This document shows, one piece after another, positions 9,994 through 38,746 of a stretch of 38,746 nt of DNA. Location of the stretch: positions 1-38,746 of the IMG/VR virus record IMGVR_UViG_3300043173_000166; one strand, 5' to 3'. The stretch is from a virus. Lineage: Duplodnaviria; Caudoviricetes. The position numbers were made by a program, and so were the translations under genes. Within the stretch, counting starts at the first letter, position 1, and the number at the start of each line of letters is the position of its first letter. Below the pieces are notes generated by a model. The model did no database searches, was not told the DNA's origin, and worked only from the letters and a program-made list of their open reading frames with translations.

Positions 9994-10977
9994 TTATATA
10001 CCTATTCCGATGCCGCATGATATCTTGCAATTATAGCCCGAATAGGCGCTAGAGACTGGCGTTACTTCGAGTGTTTGTGTGGCCCAATCACCCCATGATA
10101 CGCCATCATGCGCCCTTACATCAAATGACTCGCCGTCCCATCCACCGTCAATCTCAATGGATGCGTCAGTATTTACTGTGACAGCATACCCGCTAGGCGT
10201 TGTTACCGCTTCATATTCGAGAGTATCGTCTGTTGCTAGTTCTGGAATGGCGTCTATGTAGCCATCGCCTGAGACGGGTGAAACTAGAACAACTGTGGGA
10301 TTTCCTGCCTCAGCAGCAAAGACAGCGAAAGCTACGGCAGCAACCGAATCAGCGGCATCTGTACCGTTATGACTTACTGTCCAAGTGTATGTTTCAGCCG
10401 AGGAAGCAACAACCGCATCTGCTGCGACAGCTGTTCTTAAATCGTTCAAAGGATCGTCGTTGAGTTCAGTAGCGGCTGCGCTTACAACATGATTACCACC
10501 AGAGCCTGTGTTTACATCAGCACTCACTAAGTAGGTTACCGCATACTCACCAGATTGACTATTTAGTGTGACTTGTATCGCACCGGCATCTGCAACATCA
10601 TTAGCGCCGTTTGTTGCCAAGGCGCTTAGCGGTGTTGTCTGGTGCATCCCAGTATATTCAAGAACTTCGTGGGTTATAGAATTAGGGACCGATCCACTCC
10701 AAGCAGTGTCAAGCGCGAACGGTCCTGCACCGGGGTTTTGGGCGTCAGAGAACCAACTCACTGATGTGAGAGCATCAAAAGCACCTGCGACATTGAAGTT
10801 AGCGTGAACAGTGCCACTTACGCCGTCTAATGTAATCCCGGTCAGGGTTCTATCCGAGGCCCGCAATGCTGTAGTAATAACCAAAATGCCACGAAGCGAC
10901 CCGGTTCCTACAACCGTAATTGTCTGCGGCGAAGTGCCGGGTGTGTAGATATTGTTGTCAACAGGAACTAATGCCAT
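9994..10977 (-). CDS. Putative head fibre / surface adhesin
   Basis: Beta-rich A/T/G/V composition, C-terminal ISCGIGIGI, adjacent to spike base. Confidence 0.55.
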   Translation of the reverse strand: MALVPVDNNIYTPGTSPQTITVVGTGSLRGILVITTALRASDRTLTGITLDGVSGTVHANFNVAGAFDALTSVSWFSDAQNPGAGPFALDTAWSGSVPNSITHEVLEYTGMHQTTPLSALATNGANDVADAGAIQVTLNSQSGEYAVTYLVSADVNTGSGGNHVVSAAATELNDDPLNDLRTAVAADAVVASSAETYTWTVSHNGTDAADSVAAVAFAVFAAEAGNPTVVLVSPVSGDGYIDAIPELATDDTLEYEAVTTPSGYAVTVNTDASIEIDGGWDGESFDVRAHDGVSWGDWATQTLEVTPVSSAYSGYNCKISCGIGIGI

Positions 10978-12788
10978 TACCAAGTTTTCCCTACGGTTAT
11001 GGTTTCCTCTAGCTCAGCAGGCCATTGGGTATTTATACCAAGGTCAATATCCCCGTGGGTTGGCCTGTAGAATCCATTGCTCAACACCAACAAGGGATCG
11101 GCAGCAGTTATACCGCTCGGTGTGCTGATTCCAATAGGCGTGTTCATTACAACGCCATTGAAAGTAATCCCGCTAATAGCTGAAATCCCATCGTTAATAC
11201 CAGTCGTGCAATCGTAAGCGTCCCCGAAGTGGCTATGCGTGGTGATTGGATTCGTGGATGCTGTGCGGTATGAGAGCCCGAGCCCACAATTGCGGCCAAT
11301 ATTCCCCACAAACAAACAATTTGATGAAGCGTAATAATTACTCTCATCACTTTCTCTCGACTCGAACATAGGACGCATTGTGCTTTCTGAGCTATTCAGG
11401 TTGTCCATGTAATTCAGGGCTAAAACGTGATCCCCGCCGCCAATAGAGCCATTGATCCTGATCCCGCCAGCATCATTATTTGCACCGCCATAAAACTGAT
11501 TGGTTATTAAAAAACAGCCTCGGGTTTTGCGCAGAACAAGTTGGCCGGTACTGTTGGTATATTTGTTTGACCAGAATATGTGACCATCGGATTTTACATT
11601 CGTCAAATGTATTCCACCAGCTGCCTGTGCTGTGTTGTTGTCTTCGATGTGATTATGGTCGATCATACATCCCGAGAATTCAAAATTATCCTCGTTATTT
11701 CCTGCTCGCATTGTCTCGCCAACATTGGCGTTCGGGGTGGATGCGTGCTGATAGAGCAAGTGGTTATGGTCAGCTCGGTTCATATAAGATGTTCCGGCGC
11801 TTGCATACAACCCAATAAACGCGGCCTCCCCGGTTCTATCCTCCATGGTGTTGTGATCGAGTCGGTTATATTTGCCTTCACACCGTATCCATAAATCCTG
11901 AACGGTATCATCGGAGTAATCACATCCGTCAAAATGATTATTTGTTATTCGGTTGAACTCACTGGCTTCGTCAAGCTGAAATTTGTGTAGAGTAGAGTTC
12001 GTCAGCGGAAGGGTAAACCCTGTAACAGTACATCCAGTGGCATTGATGAGATTGCATTGACCGTTTAGATTTACACTACCAAATACATCCGCAGCTACTG
12101 TTATTCCTGTCCTGCCATTTATGGTTATATCTGCGCTGTGCGTACCGGCTTCTAGAGTTAGCACAGCACCAGGCGAGGCCAAGGCTATAGCGGTGTTGAT
12201 CAAGGTCACTGTGGCGTAGGATGTCTCCCCAGTAATTACAGGAACATCAGCCCAGTATGTCGCATCATTGTCCGGTGTTGTGGGGCTGGCAATATCAATA
12301 ACTTCGTACAATTTGGGTCTTGTGGTAACAGCCACCCCTGTGGCAATCATAAACCCGCCGATCAGATAAGTTCCGCGTTTCTCATAATCTGAATGGGCCC
12401 AAGTAATGTCGTACTGGACATTGGCTGTAAATGATCGTTGCCAGATTTGACGAAGAACGCCATCAGACGGGGTAAATGTATCGGTTGTGTCGGTCCAGCC
12501 ATTACCTACTGTTAGCCATGAGGGTTTTTCATTTTGGGTATTGTCGTGGGCATAATAAACGGTCGTATTGGTATCGACCTCGATAGACGTTTGTCCACTT
12601 TGCTGGACCTGATTGAGAGCAAGAACCCTGACGCCTTGCATGGCATTGTACGGAGAGGGTAGATCACCCCATGTAACTTCGGTGTCGGCGGTCATTAACG
12701 CAGAAGAGGATTGAATCGGCAGACTACCCCATACATCACCACCATGGTCATAGCCGATATGTGATTTTGCAGTTACGTCTGTAGCCAT
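10977..12788 (-). CDS. PL6-family (chondroitinase B/alginate lyase-like) beta-helix protein with N-terminal extra domain
   Basis: AIALASPGAVLTLEAG, NRLDHN, NRADHN, GETMRAG, NVKS, LVLR, GGIRING motifs; start probably MATDV at 12788. Confidence 0.75.
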   Translation of the reverse strand: MATDVTAKSHIGYDHGGDVWGSLPIQSSSALMTADTEVTWGDLPSPYNAMQGVRVLALNQVQQSGQTSIEVDTNTTVYYAHDNTQNEKPSWLTVGNGWTDTTDTFTPSDGVLRQIWQRSFTANVQYDITWAHSDYEKRGTYLIGGFMIATGVAVTTRPKLYEVIDIASPTTPDNDATYWADVPVITGETSYATVTLINTAIALASPGAVLTLEAGTHSADITINGRTGITVAADVFGSVNLNGQCNLINATGCTVTGFTLPLTNSTLHKFQLDEASEFNRITNNHFDGCDYSDDTVQDLWIRCEGKYNRLDHNTMEDRTGEAAFIGLYASAGTSYMNRADHNHLLYQHASTPNANVGETMRAGNNEDNFEFSGCMIDHNHIEDNNTAQAAGGIHLTNVKSDGHIFWSNKYTNSTGQLVLRKTRGCFLITNQFYGGANNDAGGIRINGSIGGGDHVLALNYMDNLNSSESTMRPMFESRESDESNYYASSNCLFVGNIGRNCGLGLSYRTASTNPITTHSHFGDAYDCTTGINDGISAISGITFNGVVMNTPIGISTPSGITAADPLLVLSNGFYRPTHGDIDLGINTQWPAELEETITVGKTW

Positions 12789-12938
12789 TTTAAACCACCG
12801 TGATACTGACAATTGTGGTTGCTGTAATCGCCACCTTGATCAATAGCCATTAAGGTTGTTGTTGATTTTAGCAGGCCGCTCATATTAGCTGCTCAAAACA
12901 TAATTTATCTCATGTGCAAGGTAATACTGTAAATGCGT

Positions 12939-16990: not shown

Positions 16991-17354
16991 TACTGCCCCC
17001 TTTTAATGGGAATAATCCTTGGTAATCGTTTTGTATCGAGTTATCTATAATCTGCTGCTGTTGTTCTGGGTCGTATTCTTTGAGTAGCTTAAATTGTTTG
17101 TTCGCCGCTGCCTTCGTGATTGTTTTGTGCTTGTCTATCCTTCGGTATGCTTCCCACTCTGTCCAGGCTGCCAGGTTGATCTCTGGCGGGATTTCTAAGG
17201 CTTCTTTGGGCTTTGCCTTCATTATGCATTTAATGGGCTTGTAAGCGCTTAGGGCGGCTTCTATGTGCTTTGTAATGTCTCCGTGTTCGTTGCTTATCTG
17301 TTCTAGTGCGTCTAATAGGTTGTTGTCTATCCTGAACGTACGGACTGTTTTCAT
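16764..17354 (-). CDS. Replication initiator-like protein with N-terminal ribbon-helix-helix
   Basis: MKTVRTFRIDNNLLDALE (RHH-like); W.EW..YRR...IIDNSIQNDYQGLF (O-like C-terminal domain). Confidence 0.6.
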   Translation of the reverse strand: MKTVRTFRIDNNLLDALEQISNEHGDITKHIEAALSAYKPIKCIMKAKPKEALEIPPEINLAAWTEWEAYRRIDKHKTITKAAANKQFKLLKEYDPEQQQQIIDNSIQNDYQGLFPLKGGSNAAYQKPNQVRRSSAVDRVKGAGDQRERARQDREGDGPPMAEACRDLRASVSQPVRGNDTGELGIVIEGSYTRSN

Positions 17355-18214
17355 TTAACCTCCATTATTGCTCGGCCTATTATTTCGGGTATTTGTGGCA
17401 CTACTGCGTTTCCGAGCTGTTTAAGTCTGTGTGACCGTCTGGGAACCCCATCAGCCACTCGACCCACTGGGGATTCAATTGCCCACTGCCCTCCGATATT
17501 GCCATCTCTGTCGCAAGATCTATCTGCCGACCTTTTTCTATTCGATTCTTGTAATAAGGCATGGATTTGTTGTGATAAGAGTGCTTTCCTAGTCCCGCAT
17601 TCGGGGTTGCCCATTTTTTGTGGTGTATCGCCTGACTCAGAGTGCATCGTCCTGGGTTGTTCTCTCTGCTTGGTGACAGACCCTTCTCTGCTTTCTCGCT
17701 GGCTCTTGGGGTAGGCAATAATCCAGACCCTATCTCTGTGATGGTGCGCGCCAAGTTCGGAAGCCGATATACAATGCCATTCTGCATCGTACCCGATCGA
17801 GGCCAAGTCATAGAGAAATTGTCCAAACCACCGTCCTTGCTCTCCAGTAAGGAGTCCTGTGACGTTTTCAAAAATTGCGTATCGTGGCAAACACTCGCCA
17901 ACAATTCTAAGCATTTCCCGGTATAGGCTTGATCTTTCGCCGTCAAACCCTGCTTTTTTCCCAGCGACTGATACATCTTGACAGGGGAATCCTCCGCAGA
18001 GAACATCGATATCTGTGATTCCGTCATTGTCTAGCCTCTCTTTGGTTAATGTTCTTACATCGTCATAAATCGGAAGTCCTGGCCAGCGTTTGGCTAATAC
18101 TTTCTGAGCGTTCTTGTCAAACTCGCAAAAGGCTACAGTCTCCATTCCTGCGCGTTCAAGACCCAAACTGAAGCCGCCTATCCCGCTGAATAAATCAAGA
18201 ACCTTCATAAACAA
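17351..18214 (-). CDS. DNA (cytosine-5) methyltransferase, alpha chain
   Basis: FSGIGG (motif I), GFPCQD (IV), ENV (VI), RDRVW (VIII), LGNAV (X); motif IX not evident. Confidence 0.92.
   Translation of the reverse strand: MFMKVLDLFSGIGGFSLGLERAGMETVAFCEFDKNAQKVLAKRWPGLPIYDDVRTLTKERLDNDGITDIDVLCGGFPCQDVSVAGKKAGFDGERSSLYREMLRIVGECLPRYAIFENVTGLLTGEQGRWFGQFLYDLASIGYDAEWHCISASELGAHHHRDRVWIIAYPKSQRESREGSVTKQREQPRTMHSESGDTPQKMGNPECGTRKALLSQQIHALLQESNRKRSADRSCDRDGNIGGQWAIESPVGRVADGVPRRSHRLKQLGNAVVPQIPEIIGRAIMEVK
17401..18027 (-). CDS. Nested alternative-frame methyltransferase beta chain (motif IX)
   Basis: 208-aa ORF inside the MTase gene with WPRSG, LLPTP, WATP and LNPQWVEWLMGFP. Confidence 0.7.
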   Translation of the reverse strand: MTESQISMFSAEDSPVKMYQSLGKKQGLTAKDQAYTGKCLELLASVCHDTQFLKTSQDSLLESKDGGLDNFSMTWPRSGTMQNGIVYRLPNLARTITEIGSGLLPTPRASEKAEKGLSPSRENNPGRCTLSQAIHHKKWATPNAGLGKHSYHNKSMPYYKNRIEKGRQIDLATEMAISEGSGQLNPQWVEWLMGFPDGHTDLNSSETQ

Positions 18215-18232
18215 TCCTTATTTGTTTCACTT

Positions 18233-18261
18233 AATGTAATACGTGTATTGCAATACGTCAA
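18233..18261 (-). promoter_or_regulatory. Promoter of MTase/replication operon with palindromic operator
   Basis: TTGACG-N17-TACATT; spacer holds GTATTGCAATAC palindrome (18244-18255). Confidence 0.7.
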
Positions 18262-18320
18262 GGTAATTTATCTTATTTATTTATAATATTTCTTACTGTT
18301 AAATTTAATCCATAGAACAA

Positions 18321-18780
18321 ACAAAGGGTCGGGTGATCCCTGATATATAAATATATCCACTGGTCATAATAACTACGCTTATCAGGGTATAGTTTTACAT
18401 CTTACCGGATGCCCTTCACTTAATATCACTTGGACCCTGTTTATGCCCTGCCCCTGTGGTGAGCAGTCCACTCCCCTTTGTATCCAGGGTACTTATCGTT
18501 GAGGGAAGTATCCTTTTATCTGCTATCTTTCGATCCACAGATTAGAGCGGTAGTTATACGTTACTGCTTTGATGACCCAGTATTAGCTCTGGTGAGTGTA
18601 AAGTACCCAATGCTGGGTAGACGGGGAGAATCTGCATAGGTTGTGCTGTAGTGGGGCGATGCTAGTTACCTCATGCTGGCCTAGTAACAATTAATTACTA
18701 GTTTAACCGGCAATAACGGCTCAACCCTTACATCTTCATCCCCGCTTGCAGGGATCACTACAACACACCTATGCAAACTC
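18321..18780 (+). ncRNA. Candidate large structured ncRNA (or structured ssDNA origin)
   Basis: No long ORF; many nested long-range helices; G-U pairs mostly favour the + strand. Confidence 0.55.
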
Positions 18781-18868
18781 AAAGGAAGGCTTTAGAAAGG
18801 ATGTGTCTTGGAGGAATTTCACCTCTGCATGCCGCTATGCGGGAGCCTAGAATCTACCAGTCAGACAC

Positions 18869-19010
18869 AAAAAAGGCCAATAAATACAGACCCTAGAGAC
18901 TTGGGGCGGAATGAGAGAGACTTTGGCGGTATTTAACCTTGCTCTCTAAAACCTGTACTTATTGACCCTTTGTCTCTCTACTAATTTCCAAAGCGCCGCC
19001 AAGCGCCTAC
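18869..19010 (-). promoter_or_regulatory. Attenuator-like leader / small RNA
   Basis: Long hairpin 18872-18889/18953-18971 followed by U6 on minus; alternative TTGGCGG/CCGCCAA and GAGAGAC/GTCTCTC pairings. Confidence 0.55.
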
Positions 19011-19016
19011 CCCATT

Positions 19017-19045
19017 ATTATCATCCATAAAGGGCAATAGTGCAA
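19017..19045 (-). promoter_or_regulatory. Sigma70-like promoter
   Basis: TTGCAC-N17-GATAAT on minus strand. Confidence 0.65.
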
Positions 19046-19057
19046 GTGGGAATTAAC

Positions 19058-19080
19058 AAAAAAGCCCCAATTAAGGGGCT
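19058..19080 (-). terminator. Intrinsic terminator
   Basis: AGCCCC-TTAATT-GGGGCT followed by TTTTT. Confidence 0.8.
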
Positions 19081-19158: not shown

Positions 19159-19692
19159 TTAAATAATTCCTCCATGGTTCTCGTGATAACTGTTTCTACG
19201 CTCCAGGGACTTTCTGAGACAACACGCTTCAAAAAAGTCCTTCATTCCTCTGGTTATTCTCCCATTTTCTCCAGTTATGCGAACCTCCCATATTTTATCC
19301 CTTTTGCACCAGTAAACTCCAGTTATACCGCTAGTGTTAGTATTAGATTTCTTCTGGTTTCTTGAGTTCTCAGTTTTAGTAACGTCTCTCAGGTTAATAA
19401 TCCTATTGTCAGTCTTATGTTTATTCATATGATCAATCATATTTGGCCAGCTGCCGTGCATATATAACCAAGCGAGCCTGTGACTCCTGTGATTCTTTCC
19501 GAAGAAACCTATCATAATGTAGCCAGCCCCACTAACACCTCCTGCTTCTAACCCGGGATATCTAGTGTTCCATTCCCTGTAGTCACAATCTCTTGTGAAG
19601 TATTTCCTGTGACGGTAAAGCCAGGTAAAAATACCACTATCAGGATTATAATGTAATAGCTCTTTTAGTGCTTCTTGCGTCAGCTTATCCAT
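19159..19692 (-). CDS. HNH homing endonuclease (HNH_3 + AP2-like)
   Basis: HRLAWLYMHG.WP..IDH.N....DNRI.NLR; NTSGITGVYW. Confidence 0.9.
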   Translation of the reverse strand: MDKLTQEALKELLHYNPDSGIFTWLYRHRKYFTRDCDYREWNTRYPGLEAGGVSGAGYIMIGFFGKNHRSHRLAWLYMHGSWPNMIDHMNKHKTDNRIINLRDVTKTENSRNQKKSNTNTSGITGVYWCKRDKIWEVRITGENGRITRGMKDFFEACCLRKSLERRNSYHENHGGII

Positions 19693-28046: not shown

Positions 28047-28222
28047 TGAGTGAAATTAAGCACAGCATAGATTATATCAGCATGGAATGTATTAACGGTC
28101 AGCAGATAGAGGGCTACCTAATAGATGAGCGTGGCACAATAGCTGATATTGCTAGATGGATTGTCGAGAATGACTGGCATGAAGAGATGGTGTATTTGTT
28201 GAACAATAGAGAGGAATTGTGA
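28046..28222 (+). CDS. Hypothetical protein (58 aa)
   Basis: Read manually MSEIKHSIDY...NNREEL; coupled on both sides. Confidence 0.6.
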   Translation: MSEIKHSIDYISMECINGQQIEGYLIDERGTIADIARWIVENDWHEEMVYLLNNREEL

Positions 28223-28647
28223 TGAAATTATTTATTGATGGTGAATGGAACTCTTACAAAGGATCACTTATATCAATGGCACTCGTGCCAGAAAGTGGAT
28301 CGCCATTTTATGAAGTGCTGCACTGTGCAAATCCGCATGAGTGGGTTGAAAAAAATGTAATGCCTGTCTTGAATAAAAACCCTATAAGCAGACTGGCCTT
28401 TACTAACAAGCTCAATGCTTACCTGAGTAAGTTTGATGAAATTGAGGTTATTGCTGACTGGCCTGAAGATATAGAACATTTCTGCCGTGAGGTGATAACT
28501 GGGCCGGGCGAGCGCATAGGCCCAGACAAGATGGTTTTTGTTGTAGATCGGGCCTGCGGTAACGATGATTCTGCAGTGCTGCATAATGCCCTTGAAGATG
28601 CCATAGCCATTAGAGATAGTTACGTTAAAGCGCGGAAAGAATCATAA
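28222..28647 (+). CDS. DEDDh 3'-5' exonuclease (Rv2179c-like)
   Basis: FIDGEW...LISMALV...HNALEDA. Confidence 0.75.
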   Translation: MKLFIDGEWNSYKGSLISMALVPESGSPFYEVLHCANPHEWVEKNVMPVLNKNPISRLAFTNKLNAYLSKFDEIEVIADWPEDIEHFCREVITGPGERIGPDKMVFVVDRACGNDDSAVLHNALEDAIAIRDSYVKARKES

Positions 28648-30628: not shown

Positions 30629-31180
30629 ATGCTTACTCAGCAATATTTAAAAGAATGTTTTACATACAACCCTAATACTGGATCCTTAATATGGAAAACC
30701 AGACCTTTAAGCCATTTCTCGAGCAGCCAAGAAAGAAAACGATGGAACACAAGGTACGCAGGAATAGAGGCTGGAAACAAGAAAACCTGCCGCAGCAAGA
30801 AAGAATACATTTTTATAAAGCTCGAGAAAACTCTACATGCAGCTCATAGGATAGTATTCTTTATAGTTAATGGTGACTGGCCGTCTATGCAAATAGACCA
30901 TATTAACGGCTGCGGAACAGATAACAGGATAGCCAATATAAGAAATGTAACAGCGGGTGATAACTCGAGGAATAGAAGGATCCAGCACACTAACAAATCA
31001 GGAGCAAGTGATGTTGCATTTAGAAAGGACACGGGTAAATGGCGAGCGCGTATATCCTTCAACGGGGTAAGAATAAATTTAGGGCAGTTCGCAAGACTGG
31101 AAGATGCTATATCAGCAAGAAACAAAGCCGAGAATGAGCATGGATATCATCCTAATCACGGATCCGTAAGGCCGCTGTAA
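30629..31180 (+). CDS. HNH-AP2 homing endonuclease
   Basis: AHRIVF...IDHINGCGTDNRIANIR; KWRARI...LG.F. Confidence 0.9.
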   Translation: MLTQQYLKECFTYNPNTGSLIWKTRPLSHFSSSQERKRWNTRYAGIEAGNKKTCRSKKEYIFIKLEKTLHAAHRIVFFIVNGDWPSMQIDHINGCGTDNRIANIRNVTAGDNSRNRRIQHTNKSGASDVAFRKDTGKWRARISFNGVRINLGQFARLEDAISARNKAENEHGYHPNHGSVRPL

Positions 31181-38279: not shown

Positions 38280-38518
38280 CCTTTTGTTGCATCGCCCGCC
38301 CCGTCATCTGGGTCACGCTTAATGTATTTAATAGCTCCAGCTACACCTGCATCATCCATGTACTCTCTGCCCTGATCGGCTGTTACGACACCTTCAGGAC
38401 TGCCTGTTCCGATAAGTAACCCTGACTTCGTTACTTGTGTAGTAAATGCCCGCATGATCTGCGTCATTCGGCCCTGGTCGTCAGTAATAGGGTTGGCAGC
38501 GTTTAATTGGTTAATCAT
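38264..38518 (-). CDS. Short tail needle/plug-like protein (gp26 position)
   Basis: Follows hub; GTGSPEGVVTA..G..Y.D....Y.K......GW knob motif. Confidence 0.55.
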   Translation of the reverse strand: MINQLNAANPITDDQGRMTQIMRAFTTQVTKSGLLIGTGSPEGVVTADQGREYMDDAGVAGAIKYIKRDPDDGAGDATKGWILV

Positions 38519-38746
38519 CGTGAGCCCTGCCTGATATCCGCTTCCAGCTTAATAAAGACTTTCTTGGTCTTACCGCTGAATACAAACTTGAAGGTTTCAA
38601 AACGCTCTGCTCTGCCGTTTCTGTACCAAATTTGTCTAACTTGATATCTGCCACGCTTACCTACTTTTCTAGTTCTCTCATCGCCAAAAGTGTGCCCGTC
38701 TTCACTTCTGGACATCCTTACTACAGGCTCTGTATCGTCACTATTG
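38515..38746 (-). CDS. gp10-like hub, C-terminal part
   Basis: NSDDTEPVVRMSRSEDGHTFGDER...GKRGRY...WYRNG motif. Confidence 0.85.
   Translation of the reverse strand, partial: NSDDTEPVVRMSRSEDGHTFGDERTRKVGKRGRYQVRQIWYRNGRAERFETFKFVFSGKTKKVFIKLEADIRQGSR

Follow-up and report, generated by a model that had tools for sequence, protein, structure and literature searches.

A modular and apparently undescribed non-coding RNA unit of phages with a covarying kissing-loop leader, a tRNA slot, and exchangeable 3′ RNAs

Large, ornate RNAs of bacteria and their phages are rare, and what they do is an open question. In the virus record IMGVR_UViG_3300043173_000166, whose complete 38,746 nucleotides were analysed here (hereafter the window), a gene-free gap raises the following question: which element occupies the densely paired stretch between an HNH endonuclease gene and the start of a C5 methylase gene (18208), both of which lie on the minus strand? 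Rated as complete, the 38.7-kb record encodes P22-type coat, portal, and terminase proteins together with O/P-like replication genes, and the nearest cultured phage by coat protein is Pseudoalteromonas phage H6/1 (53%). Its two ends (1-1224 and 38515-38746) match the same head-closure family, which fits a circularly permuted complete genome. An earlier note on positions 18321-18780, i.e., a box within the gap, had proposed an ORF-free, plus-strand element of ~460 nt opposite to the flanking genes, possibly an undescribed large phage RNA, a ColE1 RNAII-like primer, or a folded ssDNA origin.

The element is a non-coding unit of ~700 bases that shares the minus strand with the flanking genes and runs there from 19010 to 18312; it is composed of a leader (module A), a tRNA-shaped cloverleaf, and the domains B and C (Table 1). 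The box comprises domains B and C, the back two-thirds of the unit, and its size was underestimated, as the element reaches 230 nt further, to 19010. Relatives from other metagenomes match the window to 18312 (runs X3, X5, X7, and X14) and up to 19010 (runs X5, X7, and X11) and then diverge; this comparison included 7 of 14 listed runs from seven studies, all of them DNA contigs, with coverage of 18312-18580 and 18862-19010, while 18654-18757 was uncovered in the four runs compared. Freedom from ORFs holds for the box apart from one short frame (53 aa, TTG start, plus strand, 18478-18639) that has no PHROG match, and the longest stop-free stretch on the minus strand amounts to 41 codons.

Table 1. 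Features of the RNA unit and its surroundings in the window
Feature	Position	Strand	Details
Free-standing HNH endonuclease gene, upstream neighbour	19159..19692	-	HNH_3, phrog_99; 177 aa
Intrinsic-terminator-like hairpin closing the upstream operon, after the HNH gene	19063..19080	-	Consensus scan
Predicted sigma-70 promoter	19017..19045	-	-35 box 19045-19040, 17-nt spacer, -10 box 19022-19017
Module A (leader, ~140 nt), just after the promoter	18869..19010	-	
Hairpin P1	18991-19008	-	Loop 18996-19002 pairs with 18923-18929 (PK1)
PK2	18972-18979 with 18914-18921	-	
~29-bp G-U-rich stem	~18942-18971 with 18871-18900	-	Ends in U-run 18869-18874
tRNA-shaped cloverleaf, 68 nt	18802..18869	-	7-bp acceptor-like stem from the U-run; T-like arm 18811-18825, 7-nt loop
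Pyrimidine-rich linker	18781..18801	-	Also 3′ of the tRNA slot in relatives
Domain B	18628..18780	-	~25-bp closing stem and three-way junction (long stem of the earlier note)
Domain C, ~315 nt	18312..18627	-	
Core helix of domain C, pseudoknot-type	18434-18439 with 18383-18388	-	
Conserved motifs of domain C	18392-18402, 18380-18387	-	
Covarying hairpin of domain C	18487-18513	-	
3′ end of domain C		-	Weak terminal hairpin and U-rich tail
Second promoter-like site (methylase/O/P genes), outside the RNA unit	18233..18261	-	12-bp palindrome 18245-18256
C5 DNA methyltransferase gene, next gene downstream	17351..18208	-	

All helices that had been listed for the box are present at or near their assigned positions, and the box indeed folds better than shuffled sequences, with z-scores of -4.88 on the minus and -2.71 on the plus strand. 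The strand preference is more pronounced for 18310-19015 (z = -9.09 on minus vs -1.77 on plus; 20 shuffles per strand), and among 56 tiled 700-nt strand windows, each compared with 2 shuffles, the most over-folded one was a minus-strand window overlapping the element (-28.5 kcal/mol; next, -17.0). Since none of the 120-nt windows inside the box reached a z-score of -2 on either strand, the folding signal is attributed to stems of long range, and domain C is not a strong folder by itself. The outer 14 bp of the long stem are all paired on the minus strand, with two mismatches on the plus strand, and changes of the relatives at 18433 and 18487/18513 preserve pairs on the minus strand only. A plus-strand RNA was dropped. 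Two helices of the box (18547/18567 and 18575/18618) pair better on the plus strand and are the main evidence against the minus-strand call for domain C; the former helix contains insertions in relatives, and the latter gains a further G-U on the plus strand in X11 and is without an equivalent in those Vibrio relatives that were aligned. The local hairpin 18487-94/18506-13 is supported by double changes in two lineages of relatives, but not its proposed distal alternative with 18601-08, a supposed switch or pseudoknot that was dropped and for which no covariation was detected among X5-type contigs, which end at 18561-18580, and the 15 of 24 X11 differences that are listed. The loop-loop pairings that are well supported belong to the 5′ leader and fall beyond the box.

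The predicted transcription start at ~19010 is based on a promoter read in the sequence (19017-19045), a site that the consensus promoter scan missed. A TATAAT-type box is located 5′ of module A in relatives, too; their identity with the window stops at 19010, and the letters beyond contain a different -10-like box at the same spacing. Conservation around the -35 box of the promoter of Vibrio units extends to the window, and in many Vibrio units the promoter lies inside an inverted repeat (e.g., L029, 2660-2690; L034, 1160-1197). The hairpin behind the HNH gene comes from a terminator scan that is weak taken alone (2 found vs 1.2 in shuffles). The HNH gene itself is probably a neighbour and not a component of the unit, and a functional partnership was rejected; an HNH gene is the next gene in 3 of 28 relatives. 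Another HNH gene of the same family is encoded at 30629-31180 (plus). On the downstream side, the second promoter sets the RNA apart from the next gene, which was counted in favour of an RNA unit of its own. A possible operator consists of the 12-bp palindrome together with a direct repeat of 13 nt, both of which overlap this methylase/O/P promoter (18232-18261). The C5 methylase gene contains, nested in a different frame, a 208-aa reading frame (17401-18027, minus) that matches a PHROG methyltransferase family (E = 1e-26), an arrangement resembling the two-polypeptide methylase M.EcoHK31I. Elsewhere in the window, the stretch before the packaging genes (10977-12812, minus) encodes a protein of 611 aa that has a Chondroitinase B-like domain and is likely a tailspike or depolymerase.

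Relatives of the unit were found by several routes. Scanning for neighbouring proteins returned eight loci, two of which (L015 and L016) contain a diverged copy of the element (E = 6e-8), and the whole records of five other such loci gave two weak matches only (E of 0.03 to 0.04). One weak blastn match, to Vibrio phage NF, proved to be real and led to further Vibrio and Pseudoalteromonas phages. Cultured carriers are the Vibrio phages NF and Seahorse, the Vibrio phages from Nahant, and the Pseudoalteromonas phages HS2, HS5, and BS5, in which the stretch is either unannotated or covered by small hypothetical genes; NF has two units, and the model phage PSA-HS2 carries the full unit at 18309-18790 of KF302036, with the U-run at ~18445. 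No match to cultured phages was obtained for L015, no relatives emerged from a scan with the O-like protein, and plasmids contained no real match to the unit. Exact-pattern scans recovered the known L015 and L016 in one case and four matches, including two unrelated terminators, in another; two further scans had no matches, and those of the others (4, 9, and 1) are chance. A search of the literature, with most subscription papers outside its scope, found no description of the unit.

Module A is the constant part of the unit. The leader model R1 was built from 10 relatives with the window left out, although two of the ten had first been found via the window, and it recovers the window at 19009-18862 with E = 1.3e-5 (next match, 0.27), compared with a best match of E = 0.24 across 27 mostly unrelated control loci. 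R1 matched 25 of 35 loci at the expected place, including 14 that do not belong to the modelled subtype (E of 4e-4 to 0.75), and with three further loci matched by R1, module A is present in 28 other phage loci. Sequence-only profiles missed module A of the window. Across the loci, the P1 loop pairs with a strand in the loop of a 20- to 32-bp stem that closes in a U-run, and the order of the two partner strands varies between subtypes. For PK1, Watson-Crick runs of at least 6 with the loop of the same locus were found in 24 of 25 loci vs 1.5% of 456 cross pairs, a test with P1 loops (12 distinct ones) selected by eye and with loci that are related to each other and not independent; the three later loci have runs of 6, 6, and 7, and both sides of PK1 are changed in sediment relatives. 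PK2 was recovered in 10 of 14 own pairs vs 21% of 182 cross pairs. The stems exhibit double changes in 9 of 12 pairs, a value equalled in 1 of 500 shuffles, and a covariation score reached in 0 of 500, measured on an alignment that was fitted to the model. Covariation in PK1, PK2, the stems, and the local hairpin of domain C, together with conservation confined to the element and no Rfam match at E ≤ 10, agrees with the earlier proposal of an undescribed large structured phage RNA.

In the leader, the PK2 strand ends 0 to 6 nt ahead of the long stem, and its partner sits in the far loop of that stem; A-form geometry therefore predicts that PK2 and the ~29-bp stem cannot coexist in cis. In folding predictions of window prefixes, PK2 has a probability of 0.91 to 0.98 at 107 to 131 nt and of 0.01 at 137 nt, i.e., it is dominant until the 3′ arm of the stem is nearly made, and early PK2 (at least 0.49 at some prefix) was seen in 7 of 11 relatives and was absent in 4 of 11 (L015 with its register off). 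Incompatibility combined with covariation points to either a co-transcriptional switch or an intermolecular pairing.

Directly at the U-run lies a slot with exchangeable content. Among the 28 relatives, it contains a real tRNA gene in three (L030, L031, and L033), a broken one in one, and a tRNA mimic in nine (56 to 104 nt, closed by a 7- to 8-bp stem), and it is empty in 15. The cloverleaf of the window, which has no canonical anticodon arm and was not called as a tRNA by ARAGORN or Rfam, belongs with the mimics, and its counterpart in L015 has the same size and shape. Rfam searches of the relatives yielded tRNA matches and noise only, at gathering and E-value thresholds alike. Between the pyrimidine-rich linker and the 3′ RNA, a two-hairpin piece was observed in L030 (1905-1975), L034 (1340-1390), and others; it occurs in at least two sequence types, and its size comes nearer to that of the put RNA of phage HK022 than the size of module A does.

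The 3′ RNA is likewise swapped between relatives, which carry one of several types, and the covarying core helix of domain C is common to many of them. A collinear alignment was obtained between domain C and the 3′ RNA of Vibrio phage 1.067.O, and the comparison of L050 with the window gave E = 3e-11. A shared 19-letter motif is real in 4 of 15 metagenome and 2 of 4 viral matches, with module A in four of the six. The descriptor of the C core, drawn by eye from the same sequences on which it was scored, matches the minus strand of the window, five of five C3 and seven of eight C1/C6 sequences, L078, and later HS2, with seven different helix sequences and a rate of 1 to 8.5% in shuffles; it does not match C2 (0/3), C4, C5 (0/2), the L015 tail, or the plus strand of the window. 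The C3 sequence profile finds domain C of the window at E = 1 only, and strand 18380-18388 has two possible partners. Kinship of domain C with the 3′ RNAs of relatives is hence best described as moderately supported by these comparisons. For domain B, three 6-nt motifs are common to the same slot in L015, and the only relative is L015/L016. C2 represents a second distinct conserved 3′ RNA of ~300 nt without the C core (L032, 1750-2065; L046, 920-1240) that is also present in L048 and L049 (855-1120), in the latter after a different leader. Two further unrelated types, C4 and C5, occupy the same socket (L039, 1150-1470; L040, 1195-1410; L079, 1250-1470).

The unit is located in an accessory region and not in a replication locus. 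The next gene in the 28 relatives encodes a methylase in eight (assigned through annotation or Pfam in six and through a motif in the other two), a phosphoesterase in five, an HNH protein in three, a T5orf172 protein in two, and another product in ten.

How might the unit work? The explanation that we favour, with about an even chance of being correct, is a modular minus-strand RNA with its own sigma-70 promoter that is cut by RNase P at the tRNA-shaped linker and releases B and C as trans-acting RNAs. Host polymerase would start at ~19010, and PK2 and PK1 would pair first as the leader emerges; since PK2 and the ~29-bp stem are mutually exclusive in cis, these early pairings would delay the stem-plus-U-run terminator, and part of the polymerases may read on. 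The cloverleaf would then be the processing mark for host RNase P, and the freed 3′ RNAs might represent interchangeable cargo that binds proteins of the host or the phage as a decoy or scaffold, probably directed against host defence, and this last step is the weakest of the proposal; these RNAs would act in trans during infection as accessory RNAs, as has been proposed for GOLLD and ROOL. Because 15 of the 28 relatives lack a tRNA-like piece, cutting by RNase P cannot be general, and both the single relative of domain B and the sequence profiles that miss module A would count against this explanation. A more far-reaching version, which we regard as tentative, is that marine lambdoid phages share an RNA cassette with a kissing-loop leader, a processing slot for a tRNA or its mimic, and a socket for swapped folded RNAs of 250 to 350 nt; the leader would set its own read-through or self-assemble, and the RNAs would be swapped like counter-defence genes at a hotspot, which would make the cassette an accessory-gene hotspot that consists of non-coding RNA.

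The most serious competitor, albeit a doubtful one, is a cis-acting function of the whole unit, i.e., an antiterminator or attenuator leader similar to HK022 put that controls read-through into accessory and late genes, while domain C would tune the gene that follows. In line with this reading, the unit starts at the predicted transcription start and contains a stem-plus-U-run terminator with a competing earlier pairing. In most Vibrio relatives the 3′ RNA abuts the ribosome-binding site of the next gene, which fits a cis-acting leader and counts against cargo acting in trans; moreover, the unit lies shortly before the terminase genes in NF, Seahorse, H2, and BT-1011, and among the genes of the window none was recognised as Q-like. 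The downstream genes vary across the 28 relatives, however, the next gene of the window has its own predicted promoter, and H6/1, the closest cultured phage by capsid, is devoid of module A. Moreover, put is described in the available text as ~70 nt with two adjacent stem-loops (PMC9378689), whereas module A has ~140 nt and loop-loop pairings. That the loops of module A pair between molecules and form dimers, rings, or cages, as in GOLLD, ROOL, and phi29 pRNA, is unlikely but could coexist with the favoured explanation, and the U-run would merely end a short abundant RNA. The assembly of such particles would account for a PK2 that covaries despite being impossible in cis with the long stem (linker of 0 to 6 nt), and a covarying kissing loop of ROOL that had initially been taken for a tertiary contact turned out to be intermolecular according to the accessible part of PMC12286853. 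The order of folding explains the same geometry, however. Going by pRNA biology, a phage with an ordinary P22-type terminase and portal needs no packaging RNA.

It is very unlikely that domain C is a ribozyme, either a reduced RNase P-like or an intron-derived one, that processes co-transcribed tRNAs. The pseudoknot-type core between conserved A-rich joiners and the position beside tRNAs would be in accordance with this idea, and we take the helix order of domain C to be loosely like that of RNase P P4 or intron P7; but models of RNase P, group I/II introns, and self-cleaving ribozymes had no match at E ≤ 10 or, in a further search, E ≤ 1, and the unit interrupts no gene and is often present without a tRNA. 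The same Rfam search found no tmRNA, nor did ARAGORN call one. No model supported a resemblance to CRISPR guide scaffolds or to the cores of RNase P and group I introns, and a HEARO/OMEGA RNA, which would be located directly 5′ of an IscB-type nuclease gene, was rejected because Rfam returned no match and the 177-aa HNH_3 gene lies upstream, beyond the terminator. The replication function that had been suggested for the box, a ColE1 RNAII-like primer or a folded ssDNA origin, now appears highly improbable. It was plausible insofar as the unit is upstream of the O/P-like genes in the window, the L050 unit directly precedes an O-like-looking gene (not confirmed by Pfam), the window encodes an RNase H-like protein (28219-28647, plus), and the O-like gene was found to contain no iteron array, which leaves the origin unplaced. 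None of the 28 module A relatives has a replication gene as its next gene, however; the unit precedes varied accessory genes instead, it can hold real tRNA genes (three relatives), NF carries two copies, and there is no plasmid match. The GC-skew analysis that had been recommended places the turn at ~22 kb, where it follows gene direction, and not at the element.

If the favoured explanation holds, an RNA-only read-through switch and non-coding RNAs as exchangeable phage cargo would both be new. The analysis adds a new, strongly covarying family of leaders as well as several new RNAs of 250 to 350 nt, and the natural swaps (0 to 3 tRNAs, a mimic or none, and several 3′ RNAs) provide ready-made controls. 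The published RNA-seq time course of PSA-HS2 infection already allows a check of expression and processing (PMC7082346), and in the available text of that paper the terms "non-coding," "noncoding," and "intergenic" do not occur.

Which known systems come closest to the unit? GOLLD (RF02032) and ROOL (RF03087) are highly abundant RNAs that form homo-oligomeric cages. GOLLD is similar in being a large phage or prophage RNA beside tRNA genes with two regions of unequal conservation and kissing loops, tRNAs can sit in its linker, a marine member is known, and tRNA islands of phages are found close to both GOLLD and ROOL, as far as described in the accessible part of PMC12286853. Encoding by phages near or around tRNA genes is shared by the unit, with tRNAs inside in 3 of 28 relatives and a mimic in the window, but the GOLLD covariance model of Rfam had no match at E ≤ 10. 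GOLLD keeps its 3′ region according to the same text, whereas in the present unit it is the 5′ leader that stays constant and the 3′ RNA that is exchanged, and the linker is, unlike that of GOLLD, a tRNA, a tRNA mimic, or empty. ROOL resembles the unit in size (~580 nt) and in its multi-junction, pseudoknotted architecture near phage tRNAs (PMC5737381 and PMC12286853, available parts); its Rfam model gave no match, which was likewise the case for the control genomes of the same test. Differences from ROOL are the hosts of the cultured relatives, which are marine Gammaproteobacteria, and the modular architecture.

The order of promoter, leader, terminator, and tRNA in the unit corresponds to that of the lambdoid late leader. 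In this pR′-tR′ region, a promoter and a short leader are followed by a terminator and then tRNA genes, and the leader depends on the Q protein; neither kissing pairings that are conserved nor a large RNA further downstream are known to us from a pR′-tR′ leader. HK022 put confers processive antitermination via the beta-prime zinc-binding domain. Its likeness to module A is that of a structured nascent RNA just 3′ of a lambdoid phage promoter, and it has two stem-loops and a triplex (PMC9378689, available text), whereas module A has two loop-loop pairings and a terminator-like end. Fremin et al. (2023) reported viral candidate RNAs from intergenic regions of IMG/VR, including tRNA-like structures (PMC10690425). 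With lengths of 29 to 151 nt, none of those described in the accessible text spans the unit, and module A or pieces of the unit may be among their unnamed candidates (PMC10690425). Judged against the available descriptions, the unit is apparently an undescribed modular phage RNA that would be GOLLD/ROOL-like in setting and size; it appears to add a variant to the large tRNA-associated phage RNAs and to share with put its position only.
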